NCBI GenBank assembly: GCA_965213625.1
Contig: CBDBZU010000004.1
Coordinates: 4,070,369 to 4,134,368 of the forward strand
DNA length: 64,000 nt
Source of the DNA: a bacterium
GTDB taxonomy: Bacteria; UBA8248
Reading direction: 5' to 3'
The notes below the pieces were generated by a model. That model saw nothing but the letters and a program-made list of their open reading frames with translations, searched no databases and was not told the origin of the DNA. The translations under genes were made by a program, and so were the position numbers. Shown here one piece after another: positions 41,168 through 59,950 of the stretch. Each line of letters starts with the position of its first letter. The stretch's first letter is position 1.

Positions 41168-41287
41168 ATGGCATTCGGACTCAACAGAGCGGAACTGATC
41201 GGGCGTCTCGGCGCCGACGTCACCATCAACCATCTCGCGAGCGGTGGACGCGTCGCAAACCTCCCTATCTATAGTGAGCAGTCGTAG
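41168..41287 (+). pseudogene. ssb: 5' fragment of single-stranded DNA-binding protein
   Basis: AAGGAG RBS; MAFGLNRAELIGRLGAD...GGRVANL, then an abrupt switch to AT-rich sequence and a stop. Confidence 0.8.
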
Positions 41288-41414
41288 CCATGACTCGACG
41301 AAATACGACAAATAAACATGTATATCAATAGATTAAGAGATTTCAATTTGGACAAAAGCTCTCTGCCACACGCTCCTGTACGCTCTGATTTCTTTTCATG
41401 TGTTGACTACAGGG

Positions 41415-41442
41415 TTGACTATTCAGCCGAACGCGGTATAAT
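41415..41442 (+). promoter_or_regulatory. sigma70 promoter of integrase
   Basis: TTGACT-N16-TATAAT immediately upstream of 41449. Confidence 0.6.
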
Positions 41443-41448
41443 CGACTT

Positions 41449-42684: not shown

Positions 42685-43103
42685 CGGCGGTCGAAGGTTC
42701 ACGCGCGGCGCTAATTATCGCGCAAGTCAAAGCGGGTGCGCGGGCCGTTTCTCTCTCAGTGCCTGCAGTCCGGCTCTTTGCCTCTCTTCCGCGCCTTCCC
42801 GGCAACCCCTGGGTCATCCTCAGCAGAAAGCCGGGGACGCACCTTGGAAAGCTAGATGACTCCTGGATGGCCGTCCGCTTGCGGGCGGGACTCGACAACG
42901 TGCGGATCCACGATCTGAGGCATTCCTACGCGTCGAGGGCGCTGGCGCTGGGCGAGAGTTTATACACGATAGGCAAGCTGCTCGGGCACACGAGCGTGGC
43001 TACGAGCGCGCGCTACGCGCACTTGATGCGCGAGGCCGAGAGGGAGGCGGCGGTACGGGTGGGCGGGAGCATTGGTGTCCACATCAGGAGCCGTGGGAGG
43101 TAG
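42681..43103 (+). pseudogene. Internally deleted chimeric integrase
   Basis: RAALIIAQVKAG joined directly to ARAVSLS..NPWV (2734-type), ending HDLRHSYASRALALGES..RYAHLMR (1556-type). Confidence 0.8.
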
Positions 43104-43110
43104 GGTGGAG

Positions 43111-44142
43111 ATGAAGCAGCCCACCATGAAAACACTGTCGAACCGCGCGGTCGGGAAGCTCGAGGTAAAAAAAGACACTGTCTTCTGGGATCGCGACCTC
43201 ACCGGCTTCGGCGGGTCTACCCCACCGGCTCAAAAGTCTACATCGCCCAGGCGCGGGGTCCCGAGGGTCCCAAGAGGGTGGCGGTGGGCCGCCACGGGGT
43301 GATCAACGCCGATGAAGCGAGGAAATGCGCCGCCCACATCATCGCGAGGGTCAAGGCGGGCGAGGAGGCGGTTCCAGACAGGCCCCACGGTGAATGAGGT
43401 GTGCGTACGCTACCTCTCCGAATACGTCGCGGTACGGTGCAAGCTGGCCACTGCCGCGCTCTACCGCTCGGTGGTCAACCGCCACGTCCTGCCCGCCCTG
43501 GGCAGGGCGCCGAGCGCTGCGCTCTCTCTCGCGCAGGTGGCGGAGTTCCACGAGAGCCTGTACGAGACGCCCGCGGTCGCGAACATGGCGCTCCGCACCC
43601 TCTCAGCGATGTACGAACAGGCAGCGCGTTGGGGTATGATCCCTGAAGGGTGCAATCCTTGCCGCTCAATCATGAAATACCCCGAGCGCCGGGGCGAGAT
43701 CGTATCCCTGAGGCGGGAGCAGGTGGACATGGAGCGGCGCACCCTCAGGGTCGAGGAAACCAAGACCGGAGAACCACTGGAGCTTCCTATCACCCGGCAG
43801 CTCGCCGCCATTCTCGAGCGGAGCCTCGCGGATGGCGAGGATTCGTGGGTCTTCCCCTCTCCTCGAAGCGGGGCCGGTCACGTGTCGGACCTTGCGCGGT
43901 TCTATGGCGAGATTTCAGAAAAAGGTGGAAAACGTTTCTGGTTCCACGGGCTGCGCAACGCCTTCATCACGGTGGCGGAGCGCGAACTCATGCTGCCGCG
44001 CTCGCTCACGAAGCGGCTGGTGAACCACGCCCGGCCCCAGGACGTGACCGAGGGTTACGCCGCAGACTGGAGCGTCGAGCAACTCCGCGAACCCGCGCAG
44101 CGCATCGCCGACCGTATCGATGAATTGATGAAGGGAACATGA
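43111..44142 (+). pseudogene. Frameshifted chimeric integrase
   Basis: N-part resembles the 2734 integrase (KTLSNR..WDRDLTGFG) with frameshifts; fused at YPERR|GEI to a C-terminus nearly identical to the 41449 integrase. Confidence 0.8.
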
Positions 44143-44349
44143 CGGTGATTTTCGGTTTGCTCTAATGCGGCAATAATCTATTTTAAGATTGCCTTGTTCC
44201 CAGTTTAAAATTTGTGTCTTGGAAAATATAGTGATATGTGTTTCAGAGAGAATTATGTCTTTAATTCCGTACGGCTACTTTCTTACTATAGAATGAACGA
44301 ACCGGCGGTTTTCCTTTCCAACGGCGCGCCGACCTTGCGTATGAAGACA

Positions 44350-44830
44350 TACATGGACACTCCATAATATGGAGAAGAATATCCTGACAGTCATTGAGTC
44401 TTAGCTTCTCGACGATCTGAGTGAAAAAATTGCGCACCTGAAAGCCGGAAAGGATAGCCGACGCGCGTGACTGGAAGCCTTCAGAAAAGTTTTGGGAAAT
44501 CGGGTTTGTTGACCCGACGTGTGGATACTGGAATTTCTTGATCATCGCCTATTTCGAGTTACGCGAACTTGAGATGGAGGTGCTCCGCCTGTTGCGCTTC
44601 TGAGACGCAGCGCGAACTCGACATGTCCGGACTTTCCCGTATCACCGTAGATCAGTTCTACGGAATTGAACTCAGCGATTTTCCTGCGCGCATCGCCGAG
44701 ACAGCGCTCTGGATAATGGGCCACATAATGAATAACCAGCTGAGTCTCGTATCCGGGCAAAGCGAAACCTGCACTTCCATGACGGCACCCAAGCATATCA
44801 TGTGCGCCGATGCGCTGTAGATCGACTGCG
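44350..44830 (+). pseudogene. Remnant of an MmeI/YeeA-like type IIG restriction-methyltransferase
   Basis: Broken frames give EKNILTVI..LDDL, FVDPTCG.NFLIIAY, DQFYGIELSDFPARIAETALWI. Confidence 0.65.
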
Positions 44831-45086
44831 CAGAGCTTTTTCCGCCGGGGCGAGTTTGCCTCCAATTGAGAACACATGGAGCGTTTGTTCGCGCTATATA
44901 ATAAAATGTACACACCGCCTGGAGCCGCGACAGGTGGGAGATACAAGCGAGGGACAGAACGTACACTTGGGGATCGATAAAGTAGTGTTCAACTTATTGC
45001 ACTTGCGGCTATTACGAACAGAAGAACGTGGTGCCTAGCCAAGGTGTTTTAGTCAATCGAGCATCTACACAATACGAAACTACGAA

Positions 45087-46565
45087 ATGGATAACATAAA
45101 AGAAAACTATATCCGGAACGGTGTCTTTTTGGTTTGCCCGGAGCAGGAATTGAATGGGACGCTTTCGTTGAATGGTGAAGACAGCGTTCTGCATCTATGG
45201 ACCAATTATCCTGTCAACATAGATTCAGATTCATTGGACGGGAAGACAATCACCGGCGTTCTTGACAACCAGAAAAAAGCATCCCTGATCGATTGTATTG
45301 TGATCCAGGAACAACACCTCCACGGGAAAGGTGGCGTCTCTCAGCACTACAAGCTATTTCCTCACTTCGTCGTTCTTGGCCATCGACACTATTCCAAGTC
45401 TGAAAAAGCAATATCAAGAGCTTCGTTTGTCATCGATGACGCGATGGCCTTGTTTCATGACCGAACTTCATTTGGCACAGTGAGGATTCCTCCAGATCGA
45501 ACAGATGAACTCGCTTCCTTGGATATATTTGGCAAAATGCCATTCGAGGGGAATAGTCCTGTTTTGGCCTACTGGACGGGTAAAGAGGAAATCTTTTCTG
45601 CGGATACAATTATAGGAAAGATTTCTGCCTGCAATCGACCAACCATTGCAGTAGGCGGTCACCCCAGTGGGGCATCTATAAAAAACGAAATTGTGGTCAA
45701 TATAGAATTTTCCAATTCCCTAAACGTCAGGGAAATGGACGTTGAAATTCGGAAGGTGTTACGCCTCTTCCATTCAGTTCTGGGTCGCCCACAAAATCTG
45801 TTGGAATTGAAAATAACAGAAACGGAAACTTCCTGCCCCGAGTCGTCCGCCGTATATTTGAATATGTATCCCAATTACCCAAGGGGTACTGGAATTCGAG
45901 AACCAGACTTTCGTGATATTCTGATAAATGCTGCTGTTGATCCAGACGGATTTTCGCAATTGCTATCAGCATGGTTGAAAAAGGAGCAGATGCGGGGTAC
46001 AGCGCGAATCAGTTTTACGACTGGATGGGCACGCGGGAGGAGTTACGATGCTGATCGAATGGTGAGAGCAGCAAACATGTTCGATCTTTTGCCGAGTGAA
46101 GCATTGCCGCCTGATACCGTATTTCAGGATTCCTTGGACGCTGCAATACAGAAAAGCAGAAAAATTTTCAAGGAACTACCACAAAGCACAAAGAGAGGTG
46201 AGATTCTTGGCTATCTCGGAAGATTAAAGAAACCATCTCTAAAGGAGAAAATACGGTACAGATCTTCGTTGATCTCTAATCTAATTGGTAGCGGCATGCC
46301 AAATATCGATGCTGTAACAGATGCAGCTGTAGACCTCAGAAATATCTACGTTCATGGTGGTATACTTGCCAATAGCAGGATAACCAGATTACAGGAATTC
46401 ATGTTTTTTCTGACGGATACCCTGGAGTTTGTGTTTTGCACGTCAGATCTGTTCGAGTCGGGATGGGATATAGAGACTTGGCATGCAAAACCCAAAGGTG
46501 CGGGTCATCCATTTGCGGATTATCTGCGTTCATATTCCGAAAATCTGGCACGGTTTATGATGTGA
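45087..46565 (+). CDS. ApeA-like protein (ApeA N-terminal domain plus HEPN); putative anti-phage ribonuclease
   Basis: Lower GC than flanks; ITGVLD..ASLIDC N-terminus; SLKEKI and LRNIYVHG (RxxxxH HEPN motif). Confidence 0.7.
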   Translation: MDNIKENYIRNGVFLVCPEQELNGTLSLNGEDSVLHLWTNYPVNIDSDSLDGKTITGVLDNQKKASLIDCIVIQEQHLHGKGGVSQHYKLFPHFVVLGHRHYSKSEKAISRASFVIDDAMALFHDRTSFGTVRIPPDRTDELASLDIFGKMPFEGNSPVLAYWTGKEEIFSADTIIGKISACNRPTIAVGGHPSGASIKNEIVVNIEFSNSLNVREMDVEIRKVLRLFHSVLGRPQNLLELKITETETSCPESSAVYLNMYPNYPRGTGIREPDFRDILINAAVDPDGFSQLLSAWLKKEQMRGTARISFTTGWARGRSYDADRMVRAANMFDLLPSEALPPDTVFQDSLDAAIQKSRKIFKELPQSTKRGEILGYLGRLKKPSLKEKIRYRSSLISNLIGSGMPNIDAVTDAAVDLRNIYVHGGILANSRITRLQEFMFFLTDTLEFVFCTSDLFESGWDIETWHAKPKGAGHPFADYLRSYSENLARFMM

Positions 46566-46764
46566 GATACGTTTCGCAGACATCTTGCGTGACGATTGAA
46601 AAATGAAGAGCGTGTTATTGTGAGCAAGGACTATTGTTGAGATGGTGTTGTATACAACCGCACGGTGAAGAGGGATAACTTGCGGTTGGCGGGGAAAAAC
46701 ATGTCTTTGTGCATGGGCATGAAGTTGCCTTCACCCATATGAACACATGGCGTCGTCGATTGAC

Positions 46765-46957
46765 CGATTTCGAGGCTTACCCCGCCGCTTCATCACCTGC
46801 TGTCTACGCTTCACGACGGGCGTTGCCGCACGCCATGCAAGACTCGCTTCCGGCTGGCCGGCTTCGCCTTTGCCGGGCAGGAGTCGAACCCGCTGGGTTG
46901 CTACGAGAGGTTTCAGGTCATGGCGTCCTTTCCTCTCCAGAGCTTAGCCAAGCGCAA
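46765..46957 (-). ncRNA. 5' (domain I) fragment of a bacterial group II intron
   Basis: Minus strand starts TTGCG and carries CCCAGCGGGTTCGACTCC..CCGGCAAAGG..AGCCGGAAGCGAGTCTTGC..GGCAAC..GAAGCGTAGACAG..GCCTCGAAAT; no RT ORF. Confidence 0.65.
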
Positions 46958-47093
46958 TAACGGTTCGGCGGAGGGGTGATAACTTAGTCGATGCCGGAGA
47001 CATTTGTAGGAATTTCGCGGTGTAGCCAGCTTCAGCTGGTGCTTTCCTCTTCCTCATCACCCCGCGACCGAACGAATACGGCAAAAAAATTTA

Positions 47094-47123
47094 TTGACAT
47101 CGCGAAATCACAAAGAATAAGAT
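47094..47123 (+). promoter_or_regulatory. sigma70 promoter upstream of the RiPP precursor
   Basis: A-tract, then TTGACA-N18-TAAGAT. Confidence 0.55.
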
Positions 47124-47179
47124 CAGCCTCATTGAGGAAGGGGTTGTTTTTTTATCTAACCATGCAAAGGAGGACAGTC

Positions 47180-47431
47180 ATGAGAAGCGGCGATGAAATG
47201 TTGAAGCAGATTGTCGATAAGTCCACCCTTGATGCAGATTTCAGGCAACAGTTGCTCGCAGATCCGAAGTCGACCATCAGTGCGGAATTGGGCATCACGA
47301 TTCCCGATTCGATGAATGTCGTGGTCCATGAGAGCGACATGGAGACGGTGCATCTTACGTTGCCGCCGGATCCGAACATCACCGAGGAGCAGCTCGAAGC
47401 CGTCTCGGCAGGCCTTTGCTGCTGCTGGTAG
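47180..47431 (+). CDS. NHLP-leader (proteusin) RiPP precursor, core LCCCW (SrpE-like)
   Basis: AGGAGG RBS; DADFRQQLLADPK, VVVHE..VHLTLPP, ITEEQLEAVSAG leader end; core LCCCW. Confidence 0.88.
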   Translation: MRSGDEMLKQIVDKSTLDADFRQQLLADPKSTISAELGITIPDSMNVVVHESDMETVHLTLPPDPNITEEQLEAVSAGLCCCW

Positions 47432-47448
47432 ACCAGTAACACCTGTCG

Positions 47449-47817
47449 GCCCGAAGCCCTGTAGACGGCGCCGGTGTTGCGTGGCGTCTCGACGAAGGTC
47501 TCGATGATGACGGGGGTGGTATTGTAGCGTTCGGTCCAGTCGTCGGGCAGTCGCCTGCGGATGATGGCGAGGAGATGCGAGCCGAGGTTGGGGATTTTGA
47601 CCCAGTGCAGGATGAGGAACCTCGGGTTGTCGACCACGAGGGGAAGGTTCTTCTCGCGCAACTGCGGCGTCCAACCGATGAATGCATCGCGCGGGGCGAG
47701 CTTCCACGCAGCGGTGGAGAAGCCGAGCATGGCGAGGGGCCTGCCGCCCCGGTCATGTATGGCGTAGCGGATCTGGGCGCCGACGAGGGTCTTGTAGCCG
47801 AGGTAGTGGTAGCGGTC
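47449..47817 (-). pseudogene. DUF4338 (DruA-like, IS-associated) fragment
   Basis: RYHYLGYKTLVGAQIRY, AAWKLAPRDAFIGW, NPRFLILHWV..NLGSH, ETFVE..GAVYRASG; truncated at both ends. Confidence 0.75.
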
Positions 47818-48180
47818 TTCAAGCTCAAGCTCTACGACCAGGAGGTCAACGGGCTCTACCGCGGCGTCACCGGGTGGGTCGTACCGACGTCCGCCATCCG
47901 GTCCATGCCGAGTACGATGACGTTGACCGGCCAGATCCAGGACAACGATTAAACGGTCAAGATGGGATACGGGAACGCGGGTCAGTACTGCCAGTGAGTC
48001 CGCACGGCCGTGCAACGAGCGCGGGCGATACCGCTTCAAGCTGTTAACCCCCGCCGACCATGGCGGAGAACAAAGGAGACGAATGCCATGAGAACCTCAT
48101 ACAGAATCCTCCCCACGCTGGTGCTCGTCCTGTCGGTGCTTGCAGGCGGGCTCCTCGCCGCGCCGGGGGTCTATGCGCAG
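47815..48180 (+). repeat. ~365-bp inverted repeat, left copy (partner 53034-53398)
   Basis: 3' end of a Calx-beta gene, intergenic region and signal-peptide coding sequence, matching the reverse complement of 53034-53398. Confidence 0.9.
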
Positions 48181-48906
48181 AATGCCCCCACATATGGCGA
48201 CTGTGCTCAAGCGTGGTACGAAAGCGACGCCTCCGAGCATTGCCCGGCTCCCGGCACCCAATTCTGGTTTGACACCCCGAACGGAGAGTGCAGCGTCACG
48301 GCCAGGTGCCGGAAGTTGAATGGCGTGCCATCAACCCAGCAAACTGTCACCGGCGATCTGAATGACATGCGCGATCTGGTGAGTTGCGACGGCAAGCTCA
48401 AAATCGGCTCTTGCCTCTCCGCTGATCAACAAACCGCCCTTGTGACAGCATGCAAGGATTCGTGGAACGCCAGCGATGCCAGCCAGAGATGCGGTTCGTC
48501 CTACGGGTCCCACTCCATATCGACATATCAAGGCCAGCAATGTCATGTCTCGACCTCCTGCGGGACCCTGGCGGTGGCAGCGTCCTTCTACGGGTCGCCC
48601 GACAATGTGAAACAGCTCGATTTCTGCAACAACGAGTTGTCCACTTCTTGCCCAACGGTCGAGAAATGCACGAGCGCATGGAATGCGAGTTCGGCGAAAG
48701 TTACCTGTAACTATACCGGCTTCTACAGCACCCAAGTCGGAGTGGATTCGGGACAGTGCTCCATAAAGACCCATTGCCAAAGACGGGTTGACGATCCATT
48801 GGGGAAGACTGGGGGAATCATAGCAGTTGAGACCTCGTACAAGGGGGACCTGGGACAGGTGCAAAACCTCAAGAACTGCGACGGGACACTCAAGGCATCC
48901 TGCTGA
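48088..48906 (+). CDS. Secreted protein with three tandem ~80-aa 6-Cys repeats
   Basis: AAGGAG RBS; signal peptide ending VYA|Q; repeat consensus C-x3-W-x2-S-x-A-x3-C...C-x5-C...L-x2-C-[DN]-[GN]-x-L-x3/4-C. Confidence 0.8.
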   Translation: MRTSYRILPTLVLVLSVLAGGLLAAPGVYAQNAPTYGDCAQAWYESDASEHCPAPGTQFWFDTPNGECSVTARCRKLNGVPSTQQTVTGDLNDMRDLVSCDGKLKIGSCLSADQQTALVTACKDSWNASDASQRCGSSYGSHSISTYQGQQCHVSTSCGTLAVAASFYGSPDNVKQLDFCNNELSTSCPTVEKCTSAWNASSAKVTCNYTGFYSTQVGVDSGQCSIKTHCQRRVDDPLGKTGGIIAVETSYKGDLGQVQNLKNCDGTLKASC

Positions 48907-49223
48907 TGATGGTGGAGACCTCTGCGCCGTTCGCCGCGTAGGACTTCCCGCAACCGGCGCAGACGCGCGCACCGGCCGGCGGGTTGCGGACTTCAGTCTT
49001 CTCCCCGAGCGCGGGGTGCCGCCTTGGGCGCCGGGCTGACGACCGCGCCTGCGCTCCGAGCGCGGCCTCCAGCCGCGCACTGCGGGTCTCCGACTTGCGA
49101 AGCTCCCTGCGAAGCCGCCTCCTTCGCGCGCAACAACCGCTCCATCAGTCGTTCCTTCGTGACTTCCGCGGCCCTGAGGGAGACCCGCAAATCGTCGCGC
49201 GATTCCCGCAACTTCCCGTGGAG
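48907..49223 (-). pseudogene. IS66-family transposase remnant
   Basis: Frameshifted RGRQPGA.. and EVRNPPAGARVCAGCGKSYAANGAEVSTII zinc-finger-like segment. Confidence 0.5.
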
Positions 49224-49620
49224 CCGGATAAGCTCCTCTTCAATGGACGCGAGGCGTACCGGATCGAGATACTGGACTCTAACGTAGGGTGGTATTCGGT
49301 AGACTACGAGAACCTGTAGGGGTACGCCTCGCGAGACAGCTAAACAGGCGTGAGCAGTAGCAGTTTCAGACTCGACGCGGGCGGAGAGCTTAATTCAAAA
49401 GCTTACATGTCCGGCGTTCCGCAGTACTCAAAAGGCACGGTCGGCCAGGGCGTAGTGACGCTCCGCCACCCGAGCGCGTCCGGAGCCATAGTGGCCTCGT
49501 GCACCGTCAACATCATTGACAACGACAACACGGCCTACATCGGAGAACGAAATTCCCATCCCTACGGCGGTACGTGGTGGACCACGCCGCACTGCTTCAC
49601 CAACGGCTGCTCGGGGACTT
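49224..49620 (+). pseudogene. Decayed secreted beta-sandwich (Calx-like) protein gene
   Basis: One frame with two in-frame stops; ends VASCTVNIIDND..WWTTPHCFTNGC. Confidence 0.4.
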
Positions 49621-50017
49621 CCTTGCGTCCGGGTGGAGCGGCCAGGAAGCGCGAATCACTGCGATGGCCGAGTAAATCCTGCGGGAGAACGGGATTGTCC
49701 CCGACTGGAAGCATCCGGCCTGAAAGGCGGGGCGACGCTCTCGGCCCTCCGCCTCGCCGACGGCAGGCTGATGCTGAGGAGCAGGCAGTCGGGTCGCTCG
49801 GTCCGGGTCCGCCTTCCGGCCGGCGCCGTCTTCCCCGAGTACGGCGGCCTGCTTGTAATCCACGAGGTCGAACGCATCGAGGATGCCGGGCCCGGCGCCA
49901 CGATGCTCAGGCAATATCGGGAAATGGCGACCGGGCAGGCGCCCTGGAGGGCAAAGCCGCCGCGTGGCGCTACCGAATAACGGATCAAGCCCGGCGGCTC
50001 TCTCGATATTACTGCGT

Positions 50018-50440
50018 CTAATTACACGTCGAAGTTGCAGAACCTGGACTACCAACATTGTATGCCGTTGGGTAATTGGTCGAGCCCGCGCATGAAGTAT
50101 TACCGGCTGAGGACTCACAGGTGGCCTCATTGGTTGTATCGTTAGCCGTCTCGATCGTTATCGTGTGCGAACCCTTGTTTGTTAAATTGCAAGGAAAAGA
50201 GAATTGGAAGTTAGGCTGCAGCCACCAATAACGATCATAGCCAGCCCATTTAACACGGACCAGCACTGCGTGACCGGGAGCCGAACTGAGAGATGCTTTA
50301 AATTTTACGTCATTGCGGGGATAGACCTGTGATGTACCCGCTGTGATAGTGACGCTCGGTGGAGTCTGCGCCATTGCCGGGCATGTCAGCATCCCGAATA
50401 CCAGTGTGGCCAACGCGGTTACCGTCAATTTTCGTATCAT
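50018..50440 (-). CDS. Small secreted Calx-beta-like protein
   Basis: AAGGAGG RBS; signal peptide ..PAMA|Q; PSVTITAGTS, SLSSAP, YNVGSPGSAT. Confidence 0.65.
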   Translation of the reverse strand: MIRKLTVTALATLVFGMLTCPAMAQTPPSVTITAGTSQVYPRNDVKFKASLSSAPGHAVLVRVKWAGYDRYWWLQPNFQFSFPCNLTNKGSHTITIETANDTTNEATCESSAGNTSCAGSTNYPTAYNVGSPGSATSTCN

Positions 50441-50541
50441 TGGTTTCCTCCTTGTTGAACGACATATAACCTCCCTCATGTTTCATTACTCGGTTCATGG
50501 CCATCTCAAGCGGCTGCGGGGCGTTGCGTCCGCCGGCAGAC

Positions 50542-51564
50542 CTATCCCCAGCACGCTTTCAGGGCCTGCTCGCTGGAGATCGACGGGATACCCGGAACCG
50601 GCGCGTCGGTGACCAGTGTCACGCCGGTGTCATGGAAGTCGAGCCCCGGCGTGTTCTCCGGCTTCCGGCCCGTCCTCAAGAACGCGACCACGGCCTCTAA
50701 ACCGAGCGCCGCCATCCTGACCGGGTATTGCATCGCGGTGGCGCCGATCGCCCCGGCGGCGACGTCGCGGACCCCGCGGCAGCCGCCGTCGACGGTGACG
50801 ATCGTGGCCTCCTTCTCCATGCCCAGCGCCCTGAGCGCCGCATGAGCGCCGGCCGCCGCCGGCTCGTTGATCGCGTAGACCACGCCGATCCCCCGATGTT
50901 CGCGCAGCAGGGCATCCATCGCGGCCCGTCCACCTTCCTCCGTGCCACCCGTCGGGCCGCTACCCACGATCCGCGGGTCGTCTTCGTCGTACTTCCTACC
51001 CGGGTCGCGGATGTCGACGCCGAAGCCGCTGAGGAACCCCTGGTTGCGCAGCACATCCACCGTGATCGGCGCTTCAAACCCGTCCAGCGTGACGATCCGC
51101 GCGCGCTTCGCCGAGTCGCCTCGTCTTGCCCTCGCCCACATGCCGATCAGCTCGCCCGCCCTGAAATTGTCGGTCGCGAAGGTCGCGTCCACCGACCCAG
51201 GCGGGTCGAACGGAGTATCGAGCGCGACCACCATCAGGCCCGCCTCCCGCGCCCTGGCGACCGCCTCCGCAAGCGCCGCGGGGTCCGAGGGCGCGATGAG
51301 GATGCCCTTCGCGCCCGCATCCACGAGAGCCTCTATCGCCCCGATCTGGGTCCCGGTGTCCCCGTCGTAGGCGCCCGAATGGGTGCGCAGCTCGACGCCG
51401 AGCGCGCGGGCCTTCTTGATCGCGGCCCGCTTCATGGTCGCGAAGAACGGGTTGGCGTCGGTCTTGACGATCAGGCCGACAACCGGATCGGAGGCCAGGA
51501 CGGGAGAGGCGGACAGCGCGCAGCCCAGCGCCAGCGCGGCAAACAGACGGTTCACGAGGTTCAT
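50542..51564 (-). CDS. Orphan sugar ABC-transporter periplasmic binding protein (RbsB/FrcB-like)
   Basis: LIVKTDANPFF, ALDTP, FATDNFRAGELIG, VYAINEPAAAG, DGGC, ATAMQYP. Confidence 0.88.
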   Translation of the reverse strand: MNLVNRLFAALALGCALSASPVLASDPVVGLIVKTDANPFFATMKRAAIKKARALGVELRTHSGAYDGDTGTQIGAIEALVDAGAKGILIAPSDPAALAEAVARAREAGLMVVALDTPFDPPGSVDATFATDNFRAGELIGMWARARRGDSAKRARIVTLDGFEAPITVDVLRNQGFLSGFGVDIRDPGRKYDEDDPRIVGSGPTGGTEEGGRAAMDALLREHRGIGVVYAINEPAAAGAHAALRALGMEKEATIVTVDGGCRGVRDVAAGAIGATAMQYPVRMAALGLEAVVAFLRTGRKPENTPGLDFHDTGVTLVTDAPVPGIPSISSEQALKACWG

Positions 51565-51577
51565 CGCGATGCCTCCG

Positions 51578-51768
51578 GGCGGTGCGTGGCGCTCGGCCTG
51601 GCGGCAACCTGGACGATCTGCCGCTTCACCGGCTGGGACTTCCTGATCTCGGGGCTCTCCGTGGCCAGCGGCCTCGGCACGGCGGTGGCGGTCGGCCTGT
51701 TCTTCGGGTTCCAGCCCGCCCACCAGGCCTCGCGGCTCGATCCCATCGCCGGACTCCAGGGCAAGTAG
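51578..51768 (+). pseudogene. C-terminal fragment of a MacB/FtsX-type ABC permease
   Basis: AVGLFFGFQPAHQASRLDPIAGL. Confidence 0.65.
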
Positions 51769-51807
51769 AAAGCCGGTCGATGTCATGCAACCTGCAAAAC
51801 CGCGAAC

Positions 51808-52632
51808 TCAGCAGGAGGTCTTGAGGTACCCGTGGCAGTTCTTGAGGCGTTCCACCTCTTCCACACTCCCCTTGAAATCGCCATAACGAGGTGAGATCTC
51901 TCCGACGAACAAAGTACTCCATCTTCTGCACCTGGCCCTCATGGTGCATTGTCCCGAATCCACCGCGACCGGCCTGGTATCATATCCTGTAACGCTACAG
52001 GTATTGCTGGCGTCGCTCGCATCCCATGCGCTCTTGCAGTTCTCGACCGTCACGGGGATGGGGCAAGAGGTGGATAACTGGTTATCGCAGTAATCGAGCT
52101 GTTTTACATCGTCGGGCGACCCGTAGAAGGACGCTACCACCGCCAGGGTCCCGCAGGAGGTCGCGACATGACACTGCTGGCTTGATATCGACACGCTGTG
52201 GGATCCGTAGGACGAACCGCACTTCTGGCTGGCATCGCTGTCATCCCACGCCTCCTCGCAGGCTGTCGCCAGGGCGGCTTGTTGATCAGCGGAGAGGCAG
52301 GAGCTGACTTTAAGCACGCCGTTGCAGCTCACCAGATCGCGCATGTCATCCAGATTGCCGGTGACGGTTTGCATCTGCGATGCCCAGCCATCCGATTTCC
52401 GGCACCTGGTCGTAACGCTGCACTCTCCGTTCGAAGCAGTCATCCAGAACTGGTTGCTGGAAAATGGGCAATGCTCGGAGGCGTCGCTCGCGTTCCACGC
52501 GTCAAGGCACTCGGCCTGCGTCGGGCCGTCCTGGGCGCGGGCGAGGGGGGTGGCGGCAAGGGCGGCGGCCAGCACGGCCGCTGCCAGCGCAATTCCGGGA
52601 GAGGTCCTGAGCCAGGTTGAGATTCTCTTCAT
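51808..52632 (-). CDS. Secreted protein with three tandem 6-Cys repeats (paralog of 48088-48906)
   Basis: Different signal peptide (..LARA|Q); shared SDASEHCP, DMRDLVSC, CGSSYGSHS, SCGTLAV.ASFYGSPD. Confidence 0.82.
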   Translation of the reverse strand: MKRISTWLRTSPGIALAAAVLAAALAATPLARAQDGPTQAECLDAWNASDASEHCPFSSNQFWMTASNGECSVTTRCRKSDGWASQMQTVTGNLDDMRDLVSCNGVLKVSSCLSADQQAALATACEEAWDDSDASQKCGSSYGSHSVSISSQQCHVATSCGTLAVVASFYGSPDDVKQLDYCDNQLSTSCPIPVTVENCKSAWDASDASNTCSVTGYDTRPVAVDSGQCTMRARCRRWSTLFVGEISPRYGDFKGSVEEVERLKNCHGYLKTSC

Positions 52633-52661
52633 CGCCTCATTCCTTTCTGTCCGGTCCCCGA

Positions 52662-53126
52662 TTATTGATCGACAATCCGACCGGTCATGGTGAGCTTTTG
52701 CGCTCTGGGATAGGTGGCCGAAGACGTGCGCTACGTGGTGTCGCCCGGGTACTCTCCCTTGACCTTGCGGTCGTACAGCTCCAGTTCGAAGGTCTCGTTA
52801 TCTTCCTCGACATCGTCCTCGATCGTCGTGATATTGATCCCGACTGTGGGGTTGTTCGGGGTAAATGTCCACCATAGCTGTCTTGCCGAATTGTAATCCT
52901 TGCCGGCCTCCGCCGTATCGTCCTTCGTTCGATATGAGTAGCGAACGTCATTGTCGCGCGTGGTGAATCCCGTCACGGTGATCACGAATGTCACCTTGCG
53001 GCCTTCCTTCGCGCTCGCATCCACGCTCGCTTGCTGCGCGTAGACCCCCGGCGCGGCGAGGAGCCCGCCTGCAAGCACCGACAGGACCAGCGCCAGCGTG
53101 GGTAGGATTCGGTATGAGGTTCTCAT
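52662..53126 (-). pseudogene. Secreted single Calx-beta domain protein with an in-frame TAG at 52731-52733
   Basis: YRTKDDTAEAGKDY, ITTIEDDVEEDNETFELEL; the frame continues past TAG to KLTMTGRIVDQ, matching the paralog ending TLTGQIQDND. Confidence 0.7.
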
Positions 53127-53398
53127 GGCATTCGCCTCCTTTGTTCTCCGCTATGGACGGCGGCGGGCGCAGGTTTGTAGCAGTATCACTCGCGCGCTCG
53201 TTGCACGGTCGCGCGGACTCAGCAGTACTGACCCGCGTTCCCGCATCCCATCTTGACCGTTTGATCGTTATCCTGGATCTGGCCGGTCAACGTCATCGTA
53301 CTCGGCATGGACTGGATGGCTATCGTCGACGCGACCCACCCCGTGACACCGCGGTAGAGCCCGTTGACCTCCTGGTCGTAGAGCTTGAGCTTGAAGAC
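53034..53398 (-). repeat. ~365-bp inverted repeat, right copy (partner 47815-48180)
   Basis: Reverse-complement match to the left copy. Confidence 0.9.
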
Positions 53399-53734
53399 TT
53401 CCGGGTCTTCTTCCTCGCTGTCGTCAATCGTGTCCACATAGACCTTCTGCTCCTTGACCCCCGAATTGAAGGTCACGGTGCCGGTGGTCTCTTCGTAATC
53501 CTCGCCCTTGACGGCCGCGCTGTCTTGCGTTTTGTACTTGTAACGCACCGCCCAGCCGTTCGGCGCGCCCCCGAGCTTGACCGTGAACTCCATCTTGTCG
53601 CCCTCGGTTGCGCCGGCGTCCGCGCCGTGCGCCGCCTGCGGCGCGCCAAGCGCGGCGCACGCCGCCAGCATGACAGTTACAACGGCCGCGAGCCATGCGG
53701 CCCGTACGGATTTTCTGTTCGAGTCCTGTTTCAT
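53219..53734 (-). CDS. Secreted single Calx-beta domain protein
   Basis: AAGGAG RBS; signal peptide; ATEGD..FTVKL, YKTQDSAAVKGEDY, GTVTF, IDDSEEEDPEVFKLKL, GQIQDND. Confidence 0.8.
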   Translation of the reverse strand: MKQDSNRKSVRAAWLAAVVTVMLAACAALGAPQAAHGADAGATEGDKMEFTVKLGGAPNGWAVRYKYKTQDSAAVKGEDYEETTGTVTFNSGVKEQKVYVDTIDDSEEEDPEVFKLKLYDQEVNGLYRGVTGWVASTIAIQSMPSTMTLTGQIQDNDQTVKMGCGNAGQYC

Positions 53735-54453
53735 AGCCTTTACTCCTTCACGATGGTGGTGCCTACTGTGATCGCCCACGATCAGACCGACGTCCCCATC
53801 GAATTCGCAACATCGTTGGGCCATCCCCAAGACCATCTCCGCCGGCACAGTTCCTGGTTTCATTGACCGGCAGAAGCGGTTGTTACGGTGAAAATATTAA
53901 CGCACGGATGGTTGCTTTACAACTTTTTTTTCAGGTCGGCGGGCAGGTCGTTCGTGCTTTGCGGTGGTGACGGGACGGCGGCCAGACGTATCGAGGCGAT
54001 TCGGAGGAGGACGCACCGCCTCGACTCAGGCCAATCTCTCCCAAGCCGCACTGTGCTCCCCAATTATTCCTCGAAAGCGACATCCACGTCTTCTGGAATG
54101 TGTCGCGAATGATAAGGCGGATGTGAGGAACGGGTTATCGTGGATTCACTCGTAAATCGCCCGTTTAGTGACGGTGGGGGGTTTCTTGCGGGGGTGGAAT
54201 CTTTGTAGTTTGCTGAAAGTATTGTAGGTATTTGTTTTTGGGGAGTTTTGTTGGGATTTGCTTATCTGCAATACGTAATCAAATAGAATGCGGATGAATT
54301 ATAACTCCCGCGTATCTTAGAAAGTCCGTGTCAGTAAGCGTTCTCTGGTGGGGTGATGGGGGGCAAGAAAGCACCAGCCCAAGCCGGCTACACCGCGCAA
54401 TTCCTACAAATGCCTCCGGCATCGACTAGGTTATCACCCCACGACTGAACCTT

Positions 54454-54617
54454 TATGGACGCGCCCAGGATTGCAAGCATGGTCTTGGATAGTTCGGCGC
54501 AAAGTGGTCAGGCGCATTCGTGTATCCGGCCTCTCGATTGCGGCGTTTCACATGCTGCGGGCCCGTATGGAGATGCGAGGATCGGGTCCATATCGGTTAC
54601 GCGAGCTTGAAAGCTCT
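54454..54617 (-). repeat. Solo copy of the IS110/IS1111 downstream non-coding end (partner 59392-59555)
   Basis: 164-bp direct repeat starting TATGGACGCGCCCAGGATTGCAA; no adjacent transposase. Confidence 0.85.
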
Positions 54618-56269: not shown

Positions 56270-56632
56270 ATGGTATTCCGGTTTACGCCGTTTCCGCGTA
56301 TGCCCACCTATGTCACAAGTGAGAACTCGCAGCTCGAGATCCAGAGCATCGAGCCCTTTGTCCTCTCGGACAACCCGGATGCCGACTGGCAGCAACTTAA
56401 AGAAATTCTTGCCTCCATGGAGCGCACCGAGGTGGTATCTAATACGGAGAGCCACATACACGCGGTCTGCTGGAGCAAGAGAATAGGGTTCAGGGATGAC
56501 GTCGAATTCCGGCTCTGCGTAGAGGAGGGCGTCATCCACATCCGTTCGGCGTCGCGCATCGGGCCGTTTTGGGATTTCGGCGTCAACCGAGAGCGTCTCG
56601 AAAAAATCCGCTGTAAACTTCAAACCGGATAG
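56270..56632 (+). CDS. DUF1499 protein
   Basis: GFRDDVEF..IHIRSASRIG..DFGVNRERLEKIR. Confidence 0.8.
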   Translation: MVFRFTPFPRMPTYVTSENSQLEIQSIEPFVLSDNPDADWQQLKEILASMERTEVVSNTESHIHAVCWSKRIGFRDDVEFRLCVEEGVIHIRSASRIGPFWDFGVNRERLEKIRCKLQTG

Positions 56633-57657
56633 CCGAGGCGCTTGAGACCTGGCCAACACGCTTCGACCACTGCGTCCTGATCGGCGGTGCTGAGATTGGT
56701 GAATCTGGATCGGGTGGGGCGCGGAATCGAGGATGCCTCCCGAATCCACTCCTCATCCTCAAGGGCGGGGTCGATGAAACGGATGAGTCGCCGAATATGG
56801 ACTTCGGGTTCGGCCTGCATGTCCTCGAATTTGAGGTTCAAAAGGCGTTCAGTTGGAAGATCGGCCAGCATATGATCCGAAATGGCGATCATCGCATTCC
56901 AGAAAGCAGCAAAATCAGAGATTTCCAAATCATCGAAAGGCAGTTTCTCGGGCTTGATGACCATGTTGACTAATGGCGTCAGCCAGGGGCTAATACTGTC
57001 CCATATCTTTCTCCTGTACATGAGGGAGATTGGGTCCACACCGGAGTTGCGTATTTTTTTCAGCGTAACTACGATCAGGCGAAAAAGGTAGTGCCGATAC
57101 ATCGAGACGGCGGTGTCGCGTCCATCTCGGTAAACGTGCACCACGCGAGCTTCGGGGAATTCGCGCATTAGCAGGGAGCCGAAGAGCAGGGATCCGCCCG
57201 AGCGTTCGACCCAGGTGTTCGCACCGAATCGATCGCACAACACTCCGAAAAGATACCGCAGATGGTCGACGGTCAACTGTCTCGGCTGCGACTGAACGAG
57301 AGGACCCAGTTCGTCGAACAGCGTTTCATACTCGCTTGTGATGTGAGGCAGTGCGGCACACATGATGGGCGGAACGTCGCTCTGACTGAAACGAGCGGCA
57401 GAATCTTCGAGCGGATAAAGGAATTCCTCATAAGATGGTTCACGTAGCATTAGGCGAGTATGGTTGCGTTGTTTGCTGTAAAATTCCCACATCCTTTGGC
57501 CAGTCGAGCGCCGCGCGCGAAACAACTCGTGAACCCCGACATAGCTGAAAAATTCTGAGAGGCTCAGAACGCGAGGATGCAGATTCAGAATGTTCGACAC
57601 CATAGTGGACCCGCATCGCCCGGTGCTGAGTACAAATACGGGGGGGGGCTTTACCAT
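56620..57657 (-). CDS. PAPS-dependent sulfotransferase
   Basis: 5'-PSB STGRCGST; 3'-PB HVYRDGRDTAVS; LKFEDM. Confidence 0.88.
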   Translation of the reverse strand: MVKPPPVFVLSTGRCGSTMVSNILNLHPRVLSLSEFFSYVGVHELFRARRSTGQRMWEFYSKQRNHTRLMLREPSYEEFLYPLEDSAARFSQSDVPPIMCAALPHITSEYETLFDELGPLVQSQPRQLTVDHLRYLFGVLCDRFGANTWVERSGGSLLFGSLLMREFPEARVVHVYRDGRDTAVSMYRHYLFRLIVVTLKKIRNSGVDPISLMYRRKIWDSISPWLTPLVNMVIKPEKLPFDDLEISDFAAFWNAMIAISDHMLADLPTERLLNLKFEDMQAEPEVHIRRLIRFIDPALEDEEWIREASSIPRPTRSRFTNLSTADQDAVVEACWPGLKRLGYPV

Positions 57658-58829
57658 GGGGTAGCTATTTCCGTGTCTAGATGATCGGGCAGATGGTATC
57701 TGACATCCTCGAGCATTGAGGCCTCGAGCAGAAAGACGAAATTGTTAGCCTGCCATTTCTCACCGATCCCGGGAGCAATTCTGTGGGTAACTCCATGGGC
57801 TCTGCGGGACCATTTCATCCATTGCAACAGCCCCTTGGTTAGCAACTTGGGGATCTGTAACTGATCGGCGAGTTCGTCGCCCAACACCGCGCGGGAAACC
57901 CTTGATACGTGCTTGACCATGGCGTCATGATCGGCGAAATCTGTTTTGCCTGCTATCAGGGGCAAAGCTTCGATCAAGGCGTTCGCAATGGCGGCTGATT
58001 CTTCGTTTGGCGAGGGCTCGCACAAGGTAGCGATCTGAGCGAATTCCAGAGTTTTCTCATAATCGCCCTCGAACAGAAGGTCCTCGGGCGCGCCGATGAG
58101 CCAAGAGGCGTATCGCCATGCCTGCATGAAGCCGTTGCGCGTCTCGTCATCGAGCTTTGCGCCGAGAATCTCGGCATGTGAGAGCATGGTCGCGGAGAAG
58201 TTGGCTGAAGCGAGGGCGATATGCGCGGAACTAAGCGGCGCGCCGTATACGGATTCGTCCCAGTCACTCTCCTCACGAATCAATCTTCTGAGTCGCGCAT
58301 GCACCAGTCGTATGCGGACCGAGAGCTTCCACCCGTCTCCATGACGCTCGAGCGCGCCCGGCATCATGATCTCGATGAAATGCTTCGTGTTCTGCCGAAT
58401 CCTTCGCATGCCGAAACCGCCCATAACCCGACCGCTGGCGAAGAACGACTTGGCGATAAGGGTAGCCGCGTTCCGTATCGTTACCAGGAAAAACGCGGGG
58501 ATGAATAAATCCGAATGCGCATGAAAAGCGCGGTGACCCGGATACAGCGCTTTCGGGTTGTACCACTCAGGCTTCTTACCTAACTCGTCGAAAAAAAATC
58601 GGAGTTCTTCCGGCGAATCTTCCAGACCCTTCTCGTCCTGCTGCATGGCGGCCTTGATGAATCGGTTGGCTTCTCCCGGGGCGAACGCGGCGAGGGCTTC
58701 GATGACAGCGTCGGCGGCCGGATCTTCGACCATCGTTTGTTCGATGTATTTTTCGGCGAGTTCCGGGTTTACCGTCCGGGCTTTTTCGTAACCTTCGCGG
58801 TACGCTGATGGGATATACAGTCCTGCCAT
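57651..58829 (-). CDS. MpaB/DUF2236-family heme oxygenase-like protein (Lcp-related)
   Basis: DPAADAV; GDGWKLSVRIRLVHARLR; WDESVYGAPLS; WRYASWLIG. Confidence 0.82.
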   Translation of the reverse strand: MAGLYIPSAYREGYEKARTVNPELAEKYIEQTMVEDPAADAVIEALAAFAPGEANRFIKAAMQQDEKGLEDSPEELRFFFDELGKKPEWYNPKALYPGHRAFHAHSDLFIPAFFLVTIRNAATLIAKSFFASGRVMGGFGMRRIRQNTKHFIEIMMPGALERHGDGWKLSVRIRLVHARLRRLIREESDWDESVYGAPLSSAHIALASANFSATMLSHAEILGAKLDDETRNGFMQAWRYASWLIGAPEDLLFEGDYEKTLEFAQIATLCEPSPNEESAAIANALIEALPLIAGKTDFADHDAMVKHVSRVSRAVLGDELADQLQIPKLLTKGLLQWMKWSRRAHGVTHRIAPGIGEKWQANNFVFLLEASMLEDVRYHLPDHLDTEIATPW

Positions 58830-59670: not shown

Positions 59671-59950
59671 TCAGATGACCGGCGCAGGCTCCCTGTAGAA
59701 TTCCCTGTTCGTCATCAGCGCCCAGGCGATGCGCGCCATCCTGTTGGCCAGCGCCACCGCGACCAGCATACGAGGCTTGCGCGCCAGCATCCGGGCCAGC
59801 CATGAACCCGCCGGCGCACCGCGCCGGTCCGCCCAGCGCACCACCGTCATCGCGCCTATGATCAACAGCCGCCTGATGTCGCGCTGGCCCATCTTCGATA
59901 TCCTGCCCAGCCGCTCCTTGCCGCCCGTGGAGTTCTGCCGGGGCACGAGG
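59671..59950 (-). pseudogene. IS110 transposase, C-terminal part
   Basis: LVPRQNSTGGKERLGRISKMG..VALANRMARIAWAL. Confidence 0.88.

Follow-up and report, generated by a model that had tools for sequence, protein, structure and literature searches.

An inverted repeat flanking small exported-protein genes is probably a rearrangement by-product of a horizontally acquired operon

The shufflon of plasmid R64 uses the Rci recombinase, and vsa of Mycoplasma pulmonis is an expression-site switch; in these systems, as at the locus described here, the inverted repeats are placed at the 5' end of coding sequence, and a flip would put another coding body behind one promoter or leader. A second type of relevant system is formed by the MacB-type pumps, which, according to excerpts of PMC5985334, export Sec-dependent, disulphide-bonded or small proteins: MacAB-TolC exports enterotoxin STII, AatPABC dispersin, and CexPABC CexE. 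The same excerpts state that STII requires periplasmic disulphide formation and that dispersin is possibly close to the largest size MacB pumps can take. Finally, Calx-beta "eukaryote-like" proteins are described as enriched in sponge symbionts in excerpts of PMC11706023 and PMC9531527, and Calx-beta domains as part of the sponge aggregation factor in those of PMC5400394 and PMC11670116; the label Poriferihabitaceae appears in PMC12859430.

The locus was analysed within a window of 64,000 nucleotides, the whole stretch of DNA under study, and positions are those of the window unless prefixed with C4 (contig C4). The features discussed below are as follows:
41250-52750, no strand: about 11.5 kb with a second copy, 6 differences apart, close to the beginning of contig C4 (genome comparison)
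41449-42684, plus: complete gene of a P4-type tyrosine integrase with an arm-binding domain, on the left side of a low-GC island
47448-47817, minus: fragment of a DruA-like (DUF4338) multicopy element, reaching to the repeat's left edge (Pfam DruA at E 4.4e-27, matched over profile positions 70-204 of 297)
47815-48906, plus: the whole left arm, a block of 1,092 nt with an ungapped identity of 95.2% to the third locus (C4:940521-939430)
47815-47952, plus: 3' fragment of Calx1 (tblastn matches Calx1 residues 114-172 only), abutting the opposite-strand DruA-like fragment
48088-48906, plus: leader a (31 codons, 48088-48180) and CysA, three 6-Cys repeats (translated frame; repeat comparison)
49224-50021, plus: degenerate open frame with two in-frame stops and no Pfam match, gene status not supported
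50018-50440, minus: E153, a predicted small exported beta-sandwich protein (20 relatives; AF2 pLDDT 75)
50542-51570, minus: gene for a periplasmic sugar-binding protein, with no relation to the cassette (Pfam Peripla_BP_4, E 1.2e-39)
51584-51768, plus: pump remnant, the last 60 codons of a MacB-type permease gene (tblastn, residues 340-399 of the L019 permease, 98%)
51808-52632, minus: leader b and CysB, a CysA paralogue (59-60% identity; sequence comparison)
52731-53126, minus: leader a and Calx2, a single Calx-beta domain (Pfam PF03160, E 3.6e-13)
53219-53734, minus: Calx1, its own leader and a single Calx-beta domain (Pfam PF03160, E 3e-12); the start codon was picked by conservation with 12 orthologues

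An inverted repeat between 47815-48180 and 53034-53398 had been reported by the first-pass annotation, and blastn recovered it at 90.0% identity over 369 alignment columns with 5 gap openings (E 2.9e-135); a repeat search split it into two parts of 177 nt (93%) and 167 nt (87%). Its content is also as reported: the last ~45 codons of a Calx-beta gene, a spacer with an AAAGGAG ribosome-binding site, and the 31-codon leader. The identity had been said to end exactly at the cleavage site; it ends near it, at 48180/53034, the final base of the Gln31 codon and one codon past the predicted signal-peptidase site (V-Y-A, then Q), with signal peptides and cleavage site assigned by eye using the -3/-1 rule. 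Beyond the repeat, the left arm continues into CysA and the right arm into Calx2, an assignment that the repeat scores given below and the PF03160 matches bear out. The order Calx1, leader a-Calx2, leader b-Cys-rich had been read correctly in the right arm. In the left arm leader a-CysA is present, but the Calx1 copy placed before it is a 3' fragment and no gene. The inverted similarity reaches further than previously stated, with three more segment pairs: 48211-48689 and 52500-52016 (83%, blastn), which are the two Cys-rich paralogues, 48857-48906 and 51857-51808 (84%), and 46957-47063 and 54456-54350 (85%). The left member of the last pair falls within 46749-47080, a stretch with several additional genome copies that adjoins a group II intron match (46648-46886). 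Although its arms are only 90% identical, the 365-nt repeat still holds long identical stretches usable by a recombinase or RecA.

CysA consists of three repeats of 78-84 residues with 6 Cys each; the repeat-against-repeat z scores are 8.3-19.6, the observed score was reached in 0 of 300 shuffles, and all 18 Cys are invariant across 34 sequences. The AF2 model of the leader a-CysA protein has a mean pLDDT of 83 (leader below 50), and no Pfam family matched CysA. As a lead only, the models hint that the CysA-type repeat may be CVNH-like: the best structural matches of the third repeat are to CVNH proteins, with Z 5.8 (rmsd 3.1, 55 residues) and Z 5.6 (rmsd 2.6, 54 residues), below the meaningful level of Z, and are accompanied by weak Foldseek rows (E 0.05-0.3) and a language-model match of 0.84. 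However, only one of the three repeats matches, the repeats carry 6 Cys and two N-terminal helices unlike those lectins, and Pfam CVNH gave no match to the Cys-rich protein at E <= 10. Two further Calx-like genes had been placed between the arms. The first, 50018-50440 (E153), is a real small exported protein, conserved in the same genome set as the cassette and with a homologue near the operon in L017/L034, but a Pfam search taken to E <= 10 gave it no Calx-beta match, and its model weakly matches generic Ig-like sandwiches only (best Foldseek E 8.4e-3). The second, 49224-49620, belongs to the frame interrupted by two stops.

To place the cassette in a wider context, we compared 23 foreign loci from 17 public genome records. 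A fuller operon, Calx1 / leader a-Calx2 / leader b-CysA / leader b-CysB, occurs in L011, L018 and L019, Calx2 is decayed in L012 and L017, and the three-gene form of the right arm is found in L023 and L047. In four proteins (P0028, P0029, P0032, P0033) Calx-beta is fused to Cys-rich repeats. In 16 of these 23 loci the cassette has a MacB permease gene (79-92% amino acid identity) as its neighbour, and at the other 7 no pump lies within the 8-kb flanks. By Pfam, the pump genes encode MacB_PCD+FtsX, ABC_tran, PAS+HlyD and OEP proteins, and they stand convergent to the operon or upstream of it. The unit common to these genomes spans ~8.7 kb (L019 6650-15320), with unrelated flanks. The pump (MacB, ABC, PAS-HlyD, TolC-like) had been missed as part of the complete gene set.

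Since the complete set includes a MacB-type pump, the closest known analogues are the MacB-type pumps exporting small Sec-dependent proteins. As there, a MacB_PCD+FtsX permease, a separate ABC ATPase, an HlyD-type adaptor and a TolC-like duct stand beside small Sec-leader genes, and the putative cargo is cysteine-rich, like STII in the excerpts of PMC5985334. Unlike there, the adaptor has an N-terminal PAS domain, the putative cargo comprises up to four proteins with two unrelated folds, and in this genome the duct gene is cut short and the window copies have no pump. CysA and CysB, at ~26 kDa, are also well above the 10 kDa given for dispersin in those excerpts, and for CysA this counts against the pump-cargo idea. 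With the sponge-symbiont proteins the cassette shares single Calx-beta domains (PF03160) in bacteria, and its named relatives bear labels of sponge-associated lineages, such as Poriferihabitaceae. Here, in contrast, each domain makes up a small exported protein by itself, the operon adds a new Cys-rich partner and a pump, and the unit as a whole hardly varies between distant lineages; the excerpts of PMC11706023 and PMC9531527 mention Calx-beta in domain counts only and not as part of this operon.

CysA DNA is 87-94% identical in all pairs among 11 genomes, whereas RpoB of the same pairs is 56-77% identical, with one pair at 90% (one row was dropped from this comparison); RpoB of the comparison genomes is 54-61% identical to that of the present genome. 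The dS values are 0.12-0.34 and those of dN/dS 0.2-0.63. None of 22 other genomes of the same genus, which are 79-100% complete, yielded a CysA relative. This gap between 87-94% DNA identity and 54-77% RpoB identity, together with the absence from the same-genus genomes, points to recent acquisition of the operon unit by horizontal transfer. Judging from the compared sequences, the complete operon with its pump is common, nearly unchanged, to very distantly related bacteria.

In the present genome the fullest copy is the third locus (C4:935016-941000), where leader a-CysA and Calx1 come after a pump; of its cognate duct gene only the part for residues 1-200 of 511 is left. Neither window arm holds pump genes beyond the 60-codon permease remnant, and DNA homology to the third locus and the foreign loci begins there, at 51584/51589. 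In the surrounding island GC drops from ~0.68 to 0.45-0.60, and two integrase fragments (42681-43103 and 43312-44142, the last ~3.7 kb from the left arm) follow the P4-type integrase. A 13.5-kb block is present twice, both copies having the same internal orientation; past 52750 they diverge by ~7%.

The left arm is 95.2% identical to the third locus and 93.2% to the right arm of the other block but only 90% to its own inverted partner, and thus shows no sign of homogenisation between partners. At its left end it meets the DruA-like element, which has many copies in this and in same-genus genomes; intact copies continue differently past 47815, and at most 1-2 nt are shared at the junction. At its right end the 1,092-nt block stops exactly at the CysA stop codon. 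At a codon that is CAA in the right copy, the Calx1 fragment has TAA; the third-locus gene, too, reads through there. Both block copies carry the same unbroken CysA frame.

The leader a-CysA fusion of this arm fits a ~0.5-kb deletion between sites coding for Ala-Gln-Asn. Such a deletion, between the two cleavage sites encoding Ala-Gln, had been proposed as one route of exchange, and it gains support from the fuller operons elsewhere, from L011, whose homology at 47814-48183 (leader side) and 48175-48906 (CysA side) overlaps at the breakpoint, and from the motif GCx-CAG-AAy common to both deletion sites. Other leader/domain combinations, the occurrence of which the first-pass annotation had suggested checking, are numerous: with breakpoints read by eye, leader and mature part join at no fewer than five different positions across genomes, and four leader types occur. 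In L010 leader a carries the c-region of leader b; in L014, L015 and L027 leader b comes after ~10 residues of leader a; in L021 the spacer and leader b are preceded by 6 codons of leader a; and L025 carries an a/b chimeric leader on CysB. A Calx1-type leader heads CysB in L011 and L022, and a fourth leader type (L013, L016, L020, L023) heads Calx1, CysA and CysB alike within the single loci L013 and L023. Leader a-CysA fusions also occur in L010 and in the non-inverted locus L008. These junctions indicate that leader swapping recurs in evolution; the proposed exchange of mature domains behind a shared leader holds on that scale, but it looks unprogrammed.

We consider it likely that the inverted repeat is no switch but was left behind when a horizontally acquired operon underwent duplication, deletion and rearrangement by mobile elements. 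The operon encodes the small, predicted Sec-exported proteins Calx1 and Calx2, each a single Calx-beta domain, and CysA and CysB, each with three 6-Cys repeats. In the right arm, Calx1, leader a-Calx2 and leader b-CysB persist together with the 60-codon end of the permease gene. The left arm, 1,092 nt from mid-Calx1 to the CysA stop, would stem from a locus resembling the third one and have been copied into a DruA-like element. Earlier, ~0.5 kb (the mature part of Calx2, the spacer and leader b) would have been lost between near-identical Ala-Gln-Asn sites of neighbouring genes, giving the leader a-CysA fusion. As spacers and leaders are alike at the start of every gene in the operon, unequal recombination would recur, and its products would survive only if they stay in frame and can still be exported. 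The direction of these events is the one we infer; the three-gene form could be ancestral, with CysA a later tandem duplicate, and in a sliding comparison the two parental spacers were indistinguishable from each other.

It is unlikely, in our view, that the modularity itself is selected, with gene conversion keeping spacers and leaders alike, re-assortment being advantageous (dosage, or the cargo set after transfer), and the left arm serving as a functional extra CysA. Spacers and leaders are near identical between neighbouring genes within a genome and differ between genomes (L013, L017, L019, L022), junctions are in frame at the five or more places described, the left-arm CysA is preserved as described, and dN/dS values of 0.3-0.63 speak of continuing constraint; nevertheless, survivorship accounts for in-frame junctions without selection, and promoter-like sites (2, against a shuffle mean of 1.9) show no excess.

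Much less probable is an assembly artefact, in which mis-joined reads of similar community cassettes would have created the inverted arrangement or the second block. In run X1 the word depth, which is not copy number, is ~1,300-6,100 in the cassette and ~117-167 in unique flanks, the 11.5-kb duplicate is near perfect with its 6 differences, the block-to-flank depth is ~1x in X1 and X2 and ~1.8x in X3 and X4, and contamination is estimated at 5.16%. Yet the arms differ by 6-13% from each other and from all foreign copies and are therefore not collapsed copies; each passes at both ends into unique sequence of a single 4.13-Mb contig, and contigs of four runs match the unique parts between the arms without differences.

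The shufflon-like inversion suggested initially, in which the 365-nt arms would recombine and flip a 4.8-kb segment, the right Calx1 and leader a driving either Calx2-CysB or CysA while the left arm waits as a silent cassette, has fitting geometry, a left arm devoid of the Calx1 5' part and of an upstream gene start, repeat ends at most one codon from the cleavage site and tyrosine integrase genes 3.7-6 kb off, but is the least probable of all, given the diverged arms, the illegitimate insertion of the left one into a broken repeat element, the same fusion in plain non-inverted L008 and in L010, and the single orientation of both block copies. The 23 foreign loci run mostly in one direction, none having a second, opposite Cys-rich gene within the stretches compared (L018 and L022 have a lone inverted Calx1-like gene 6-8 kb away). 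The contigs of the four runs are short and break at the repeats, and the lack of a strand-changing joint in them speaks neither for nor against inversion. Unlike R64 and vsa, the locus has no recombinase gene between or beside the arms and no short conserved crossover site was identified; the nearest and only complete integrase (41449-42684) is of the P4 type with an arm-binding domain, typical of island integration.

If the locus is a rearranged remnant of a transferred operon, as we favour, its products would enter the periplasm via Sec and gain disulphides there, and the MacB-type pump, linked to them by conserved neighbourhood only, may then expel the Calx and Cys-rich proteins from the periplasm. 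Outside the cell these exported proteins may be calcium-binding, adhesive or lectin-like, in an animal-associated (sponge-type) community.

The inverted repeat on which the first-pass annotation built its case is real: 47815-48180 and 53398-53034 align over 369 columns, with an identity of 90.0% and 5 gap openings (E = 2.9e-135), and the repeat finder splits them into two pieces. Both arms carry the final ~45 codons of a Calx-beta gene, then a spacer that includes a ribosome-binding site, and a 31-codon leader (leader a), beyond which the left arm continues into CysA, a protein of three 6-Cys repeats, and the right arm into Calx2, a small exported Calx-beta protein. Identity had been said to end exactly at the cleavage site; the similarity does stop closely there, but it runs to the end of the Gln31 codon, which is one codon past the signal-peptidase site as placed by eye. 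Leader a and leader b, the second leader, which precedes CysB, are candidate Sec-type leaders by the same reading by eye: they show two Arg and a hydrophobic run of 18 residues, and Gln is preceded by V-Y-A or A-R-A. In the AF2 model of CysA the leader has a pLDDT below 50. The order proposed for the right arm is borne out: an intact Calx1 gene lies upstream, followed by leader a-Calx2 and then by leader b with the Cys-rich CysB, which is 59-60% identical to CysA. Calx1 (47.1 bits, E = 3e-12) and Calx2 (50.0 bits, E = 3.6e-13) both exceed the curated PF03160 cut-off of 27 bits, and these Calx-beta genes are new members of an already known class. Downstream of CysB the right arm ends in a remnant of a MacB-type permease gene, its last 60 codons (51584-51768).

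Two further claims about the cassette did not stand in the form given. The left "Calx1" is a 3' fragment, with TAA where the right copy has CAA, while the corresponding gene of a third cassette locus in this genome (L008, on contig C4) continues through the same point. The supposed further Calx-like genes between the arms, at 50018-50479 and 49350-49700, gave no PF03160 match even at E <= 10. The stretch 50018-50440 encodes a conserved small exported protein, modelled as a generic Ig-like sandwich with weak fold matches (best E = 8.4e-3) and no Calx-beta chain among the matches listed, and the frame at 49224-49640 holds 2 in-frame stops.

The left arm is exactly 1,092 nt long (47815-48906) and aligns without gaps to the third locus (C4:939430-940521) at 95.2%, which is closer than its 90% to its own inverted partner. 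Its left edge adjoins a DruA-like element that is multicopy in this genome and in genomes of the same genus; intact copies of the element continue differently beyond 47815, with junction homology of at most 1-2 nt, and on the right the arm runs exactly to the CysA stop codon. The element parts on either side of the arm are ~1.56 kb apart in relatives, hence the left arm replaced part of a DruA-like element. The inverted repeat as such is ordinary genome debris.

Of the two mechanisms put forward earlier, programmed, shufflon-like inversion between the repeats is very improbable: the arms have diverged and the left one is nearest a locus other than its partner, one arm is a mere fragment lodged in a disrupted mobile element, the leader a-CysA fusion is also found at plain, non-inverted loci, no recombinase gene lies between or adjoining the arms (the sole complete integrase gene, P4-type, is at 41449-42684, and integrase fragments reach to 44142, 3.7 kb from the left arm), and two copies of the surrounding block in the genome have the same orientation. 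Four sequencing runs, all of one study, gave short assembled contigs that break at the repeats, in which no strand-changing joint was listed; the only joint listed was an 87-nt skip at 54165-54253. A promoter and terminator scan returned counts equal to those in shuffles.

The second mechanism, a deletion between two cleavage-site codons, fits the breakpoints well. In comparison with L011, a cassette locus of another genome, the homologous stretch that covers the Calx1 tail, spacer and leader a of the window runs to 48183, and the one that covers mature CysA begins at 48175. Both parental sites, the leader a end of Calx2 and the leader b end of CysA, read GCx-CAG-AAy (Ala-Gln-Asn). The left-arm gene would have arisen by loss of ~0.46-0.5 kb between these sites, the lost stretch comprising the mature part of Calx2, the spacer and leader b. 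Since the same junction is present in the third locus, the leader a-CysA fusion predates the rearrangements in the window. In a spacer comparison, two candidate parent spacers of the right arm could not be told apart.

The broader claim that mature domains are exchanged behind leaders gains support from other genomes, where the junctions are differently placed:

Leader junctions in other genomes (L, cassette loci; P, relative proteins; breakpoints read by eye)
L010: leader a with the c-region of leader b
L014, L015, L027: about ten residues of leader a, then leader b
L021: six codons of leader a, in frame via the spacer into leader b
L025: an a/b chimera leader on CysB
L011, L022 (also P0013, P0015, P0018, P0020): a Calx1-type leader on CysB
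L013, L016, L020, L023: a fourth leader type

At L013 and L023, which carry several of these genes, the fourth leader type heads Calx1, CysA and CysB alike, and neighbouring genes of one genome often have near-identical spacer-plus-leader stretches (L013, L017, L019, L022). These varied junctions and shared stretches indicate that leaders and mature parts have separate histories. The simplest cause would be that tandem genes, alike in their 5' modules, recombine unequally and undergo gene conversion there, and only in-frame, still-exported products would survive. The right-arm order Calx1-Calx2-CysB recurs in L023 and in the metagenome contig L047, the one contig returned by a metagenome-contig scan with the leader-a DNA pattern, which added no new leader/domain combination. 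At L018 and L019 CysB has a copy of the Calx2 tail in front of it, so that CysA lies within a direct repeat through which it could be lost.

The window is the terminal stretch of a 4.13-Mb contig, and its GC content falls from ~0.68 to 0.45-0.60 from ~44 kb onward. The low-GC island holds the P4-type integrase with the two fragments of integrase genes, a piece of a group II intron and a DruA-like fragment, besides the ApeA-type and NHLP-type genes given below. The stretch 40843-54357 recurs at C4:15146-28638 with 98.3% identity; the two copies differ at only 6 positions over 41250-52750 and by ~7% over 52750-54350, which covers the 5' part of Calx2, Calx1 and its upstream region. Consequently, one end of a very recent duplication or conversion falls inside an older paralogous cassette, and the cassette again looks like a recombination substrate. 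Two runs showed a block-to-flank depth of ~1x, and two others, which share a sample, showed ~1.8x; this hints weakly that the second copy may be polymorphic or mis-assembled. Other features observed in the window are as follows:

Further features of the window
8755-27962: ~19 kb of high-GC DNA, repeated in diverged form (87-89%) and inverted order at C4:3445487-3464630
40835-41262: ~420-nt element with at least 9 further copies (80-87%) around the chromosome and no tRNA or Rfam match; its left edge is where the duplicated block begins (40843)
45087-46565 (+): ApeA-type defence gene (ApeA_NTD1 + HEPN_Apea) in the lowest-GC part of the island (0.45)
46648-46886 (-): match to group II intron domain 1-4 (RF02005, 76 bits)
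46749-47080: overlapping 330-nt stretch with four more copies in the genome (87-95%)
46957-47063: stretch with an 85% inverted copy at 54350-54456
47189-47431 (+): NHLP-type (nitrile-hydratase-leader) peptide precursor with a Cys-rich tail (Pfam NHase_alpha, E = 5.4e-8); similar copies elsewhere in the genome and in same-genus genomes
56620-57657 (-): sulfotransferase gene, just outside the duplicated block
57651-58829 (-): MpaB/Lcp-type oxygenase gene, likewise just outside the block
59729-61285 (+): Mutator-family transposase gene; 1,347-nt element at 59948-61294 with two more copies at 99.8-100%

The three repeats of CysA (78-84 residues, 6 Cys apiece) are mutually related, with z values of 8.3-19.6 and the observed score reached in 0 of 300 shuffles, and all 18 Cys are invariant across 34 sequences. 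A large protein collection contains 33 CysA relatives, and a Pfam family is present in only four of them, namely Calx-beta fused ahead of the Cys-rich repeats. The AF2 model of CysA is confident (mean pLDDT 83), and Foldseek returned no match to it at E <= 0.001. Its best structural matches are CVNH lectins, weak (Z 5.8 and 5.6) and limited to repeat 3; a language-model search also pointed weakly toward CVNH (0.84), and none of the three repeats had a match to the CVNH family PF08881 at E <= 10. We regard this model-based CVNH likeness as a lead, short of a finding. When the PDB was searched with an alignment of the Cys-rich relatives that includes the four Calx-fused rows, sequence matches were confined to the Calx-beta columns. 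Owing to the same rows, a profile search of protein representatives was dominated by giant Calx-beta repeat proteins, and the Cys-rich part was matched by 7 among the best 150 (P0028, P0016, P0030, P0031, P0088, P0104 and P0119). Longer fused forms were absent at E <= 0.001 among 1,183 candidates, in a weak search that missed the known fusions of 455-459 aa. The protein P0088 (531 aa, from another source) has about six copies of the same 6-Cys module, with 4 matched stretches in the profile search, so the repeat number in the family ranges from 3 to about 6. The 6-Cys repeats are a new Cys-rich domain family, without a Pfam model or a clear structural match.

Scanning one genome per species (185,579 species) yielded 23 cassette loci in 17 records, labelled Rhodospirillales, Alphaproteobacteria, Candidatus Binatia, Candidatus Poriferihabitaceae, Candidatus Porisulfidus, Paracoccaceae, Thalassobaculaceae, Gammaproteobacteria and Acidobacteria. 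PMC12859430 applies the Poriferihabitaceae label to genome bins of a sponge metagenome. The fullest loci (L011, L018 and L019) read Calx1 / leader a-Calx2 / leader b-CysA / leader b-CysB. Of the 23 loci, 16 have a MacB permease gene (79-92% amino-acid identity) next to the cassette; the other seven, L010, L014, L015, L016, L021, L025 and L026, have none there. Genes for an ABC ATPase and a PAS-HlyD adaptor accompany the permease at 15 of these 16 loci; the exception, L029, is a short contig ending inside the permease gene. The pump genes of L019 encode, in addition, a TolC-like OEP (511 aa) beside the ABC ATPase and the PAS+HlyD protein (588 aa), and DNA homology of L019 to the loci of other genomes spans at most ~6650-15320 (8.7 kb) and stops there. 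At the third locus of this genome, the PAS-HlyD adaptor, the ABC ATPase and the MacB permease (L008 8192-9391; MacB_PCD E = 3.1e-32, FtsX E = 4.2e-21) converge on leader a-CysA and Calx1. Its TolC-like gene (L008 5257-7410; C4:935016-937410) retains only residues 1-200 of 511, has a frame change and continues into the adaptor frame, the two forming a single open frame of 717 codons. With the duct gene truncated, the co-encoded pump is complete in relatives and incomplete here.

MacB-type pumps draw their substrates from the periplasm. The conserved pump neighbourhood suggests that the Calx and Cys-rich proteins are putative cargo of such a pump. According to PMC5985334, pumps of this type export small Sec-dependent proteins, namely STII, which requires DsbA, dispersin and CexE. 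Points of caution for the cargo reading are the size of CysA (~26 kDa, compared with 10 kDa for dispersin), the unusual PAS domain of the adaptor and the truncated duct gene of this genome.

Mature CysA DNA is 87-94% identical in every pair among 11 genomes, whereas the RpoB proteins of the same pairs are 56-77% identical, except for 90% between two Binatia-labelled genomes; genome G004 was left out of the pairwise RpoB comparison because its longest frame was not RpoB (20-22% identity), and a value of 54% was used instead. All 10 genomes compared with this one have an RpoB identity of 54-61% to it. For the cassette genes, dS to this genome is 0.12-0.34 and dN/dS 0.2-0.63, in a comparison that left out six Calx1 rows. 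Within the window's genus, 22 other genomes (79-100% complete) had no CysA relative at E <= 1e-5. Taken together, the similarity of CysA DNA, the low RpoB identity, the low dS and the absence from those 22 genomes point to recent transfer of the ~8.7-kb unit between distant lineages. The loci L028-L030, with identical genes on 3-9-kb contigs under three phylum labels, were set aside as transfer evidence since short contigs can be mis-binned. Word depth of cassette parts, which is not copy number, was 10-40x that of unique parts in four runs; as a weak hint, it would fit similar copies in many community members.

Calx-beta is counted among the "eukaryote-like" domains enriched in sponge symbionts (PMC11706023 and PMC9531527), and the sponge aggregation factor is described as built with Calx-beta domains (PMC5400394 and PMC11670116). 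We tentatively propose, as a possible reading that may well prove wrong, that the self-contained ~8.7-kb unit moves between distant bacteria of a shared sponge-type host, that it carries host-like Calx-beta cargo re-assorted by its leader modules, and that the arms in the window are one outcome of this process. The unit can be grouped with known MacB-type protein-export loci and with the "eukaryote-like" proteins of symbionts. Full-text literature searches returned no paper that describes a pump combined with four cargo genes as one unit, or reports such a unit as nearly identical across distant lineages.

If the proposal is true, the mobile unit would consist of a TolC-like duct, a PAS-HlyD adaptor, an ABC ATPase and a MacB permease with up to four cargo genes, the cargo being Calx-beta proteins that resemble host adhesion-factor domains and a 6-Cys repeat protein, so far undescribed and possibly lectin-like. 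The near-identical spacer-plus-leader modules heading the cargo genes would then permit quick re-assortment of the cargo after each transfer. The leader/mature junctions provide a natural example of small deletions recombining the signal peptides and mature domains of neighbouring genes, which bears on how secreted-protein repertoires evolve, and the pump-plus-cargo unit is a candidate "habitat gene set" for life in an animal host, with a testable export route.
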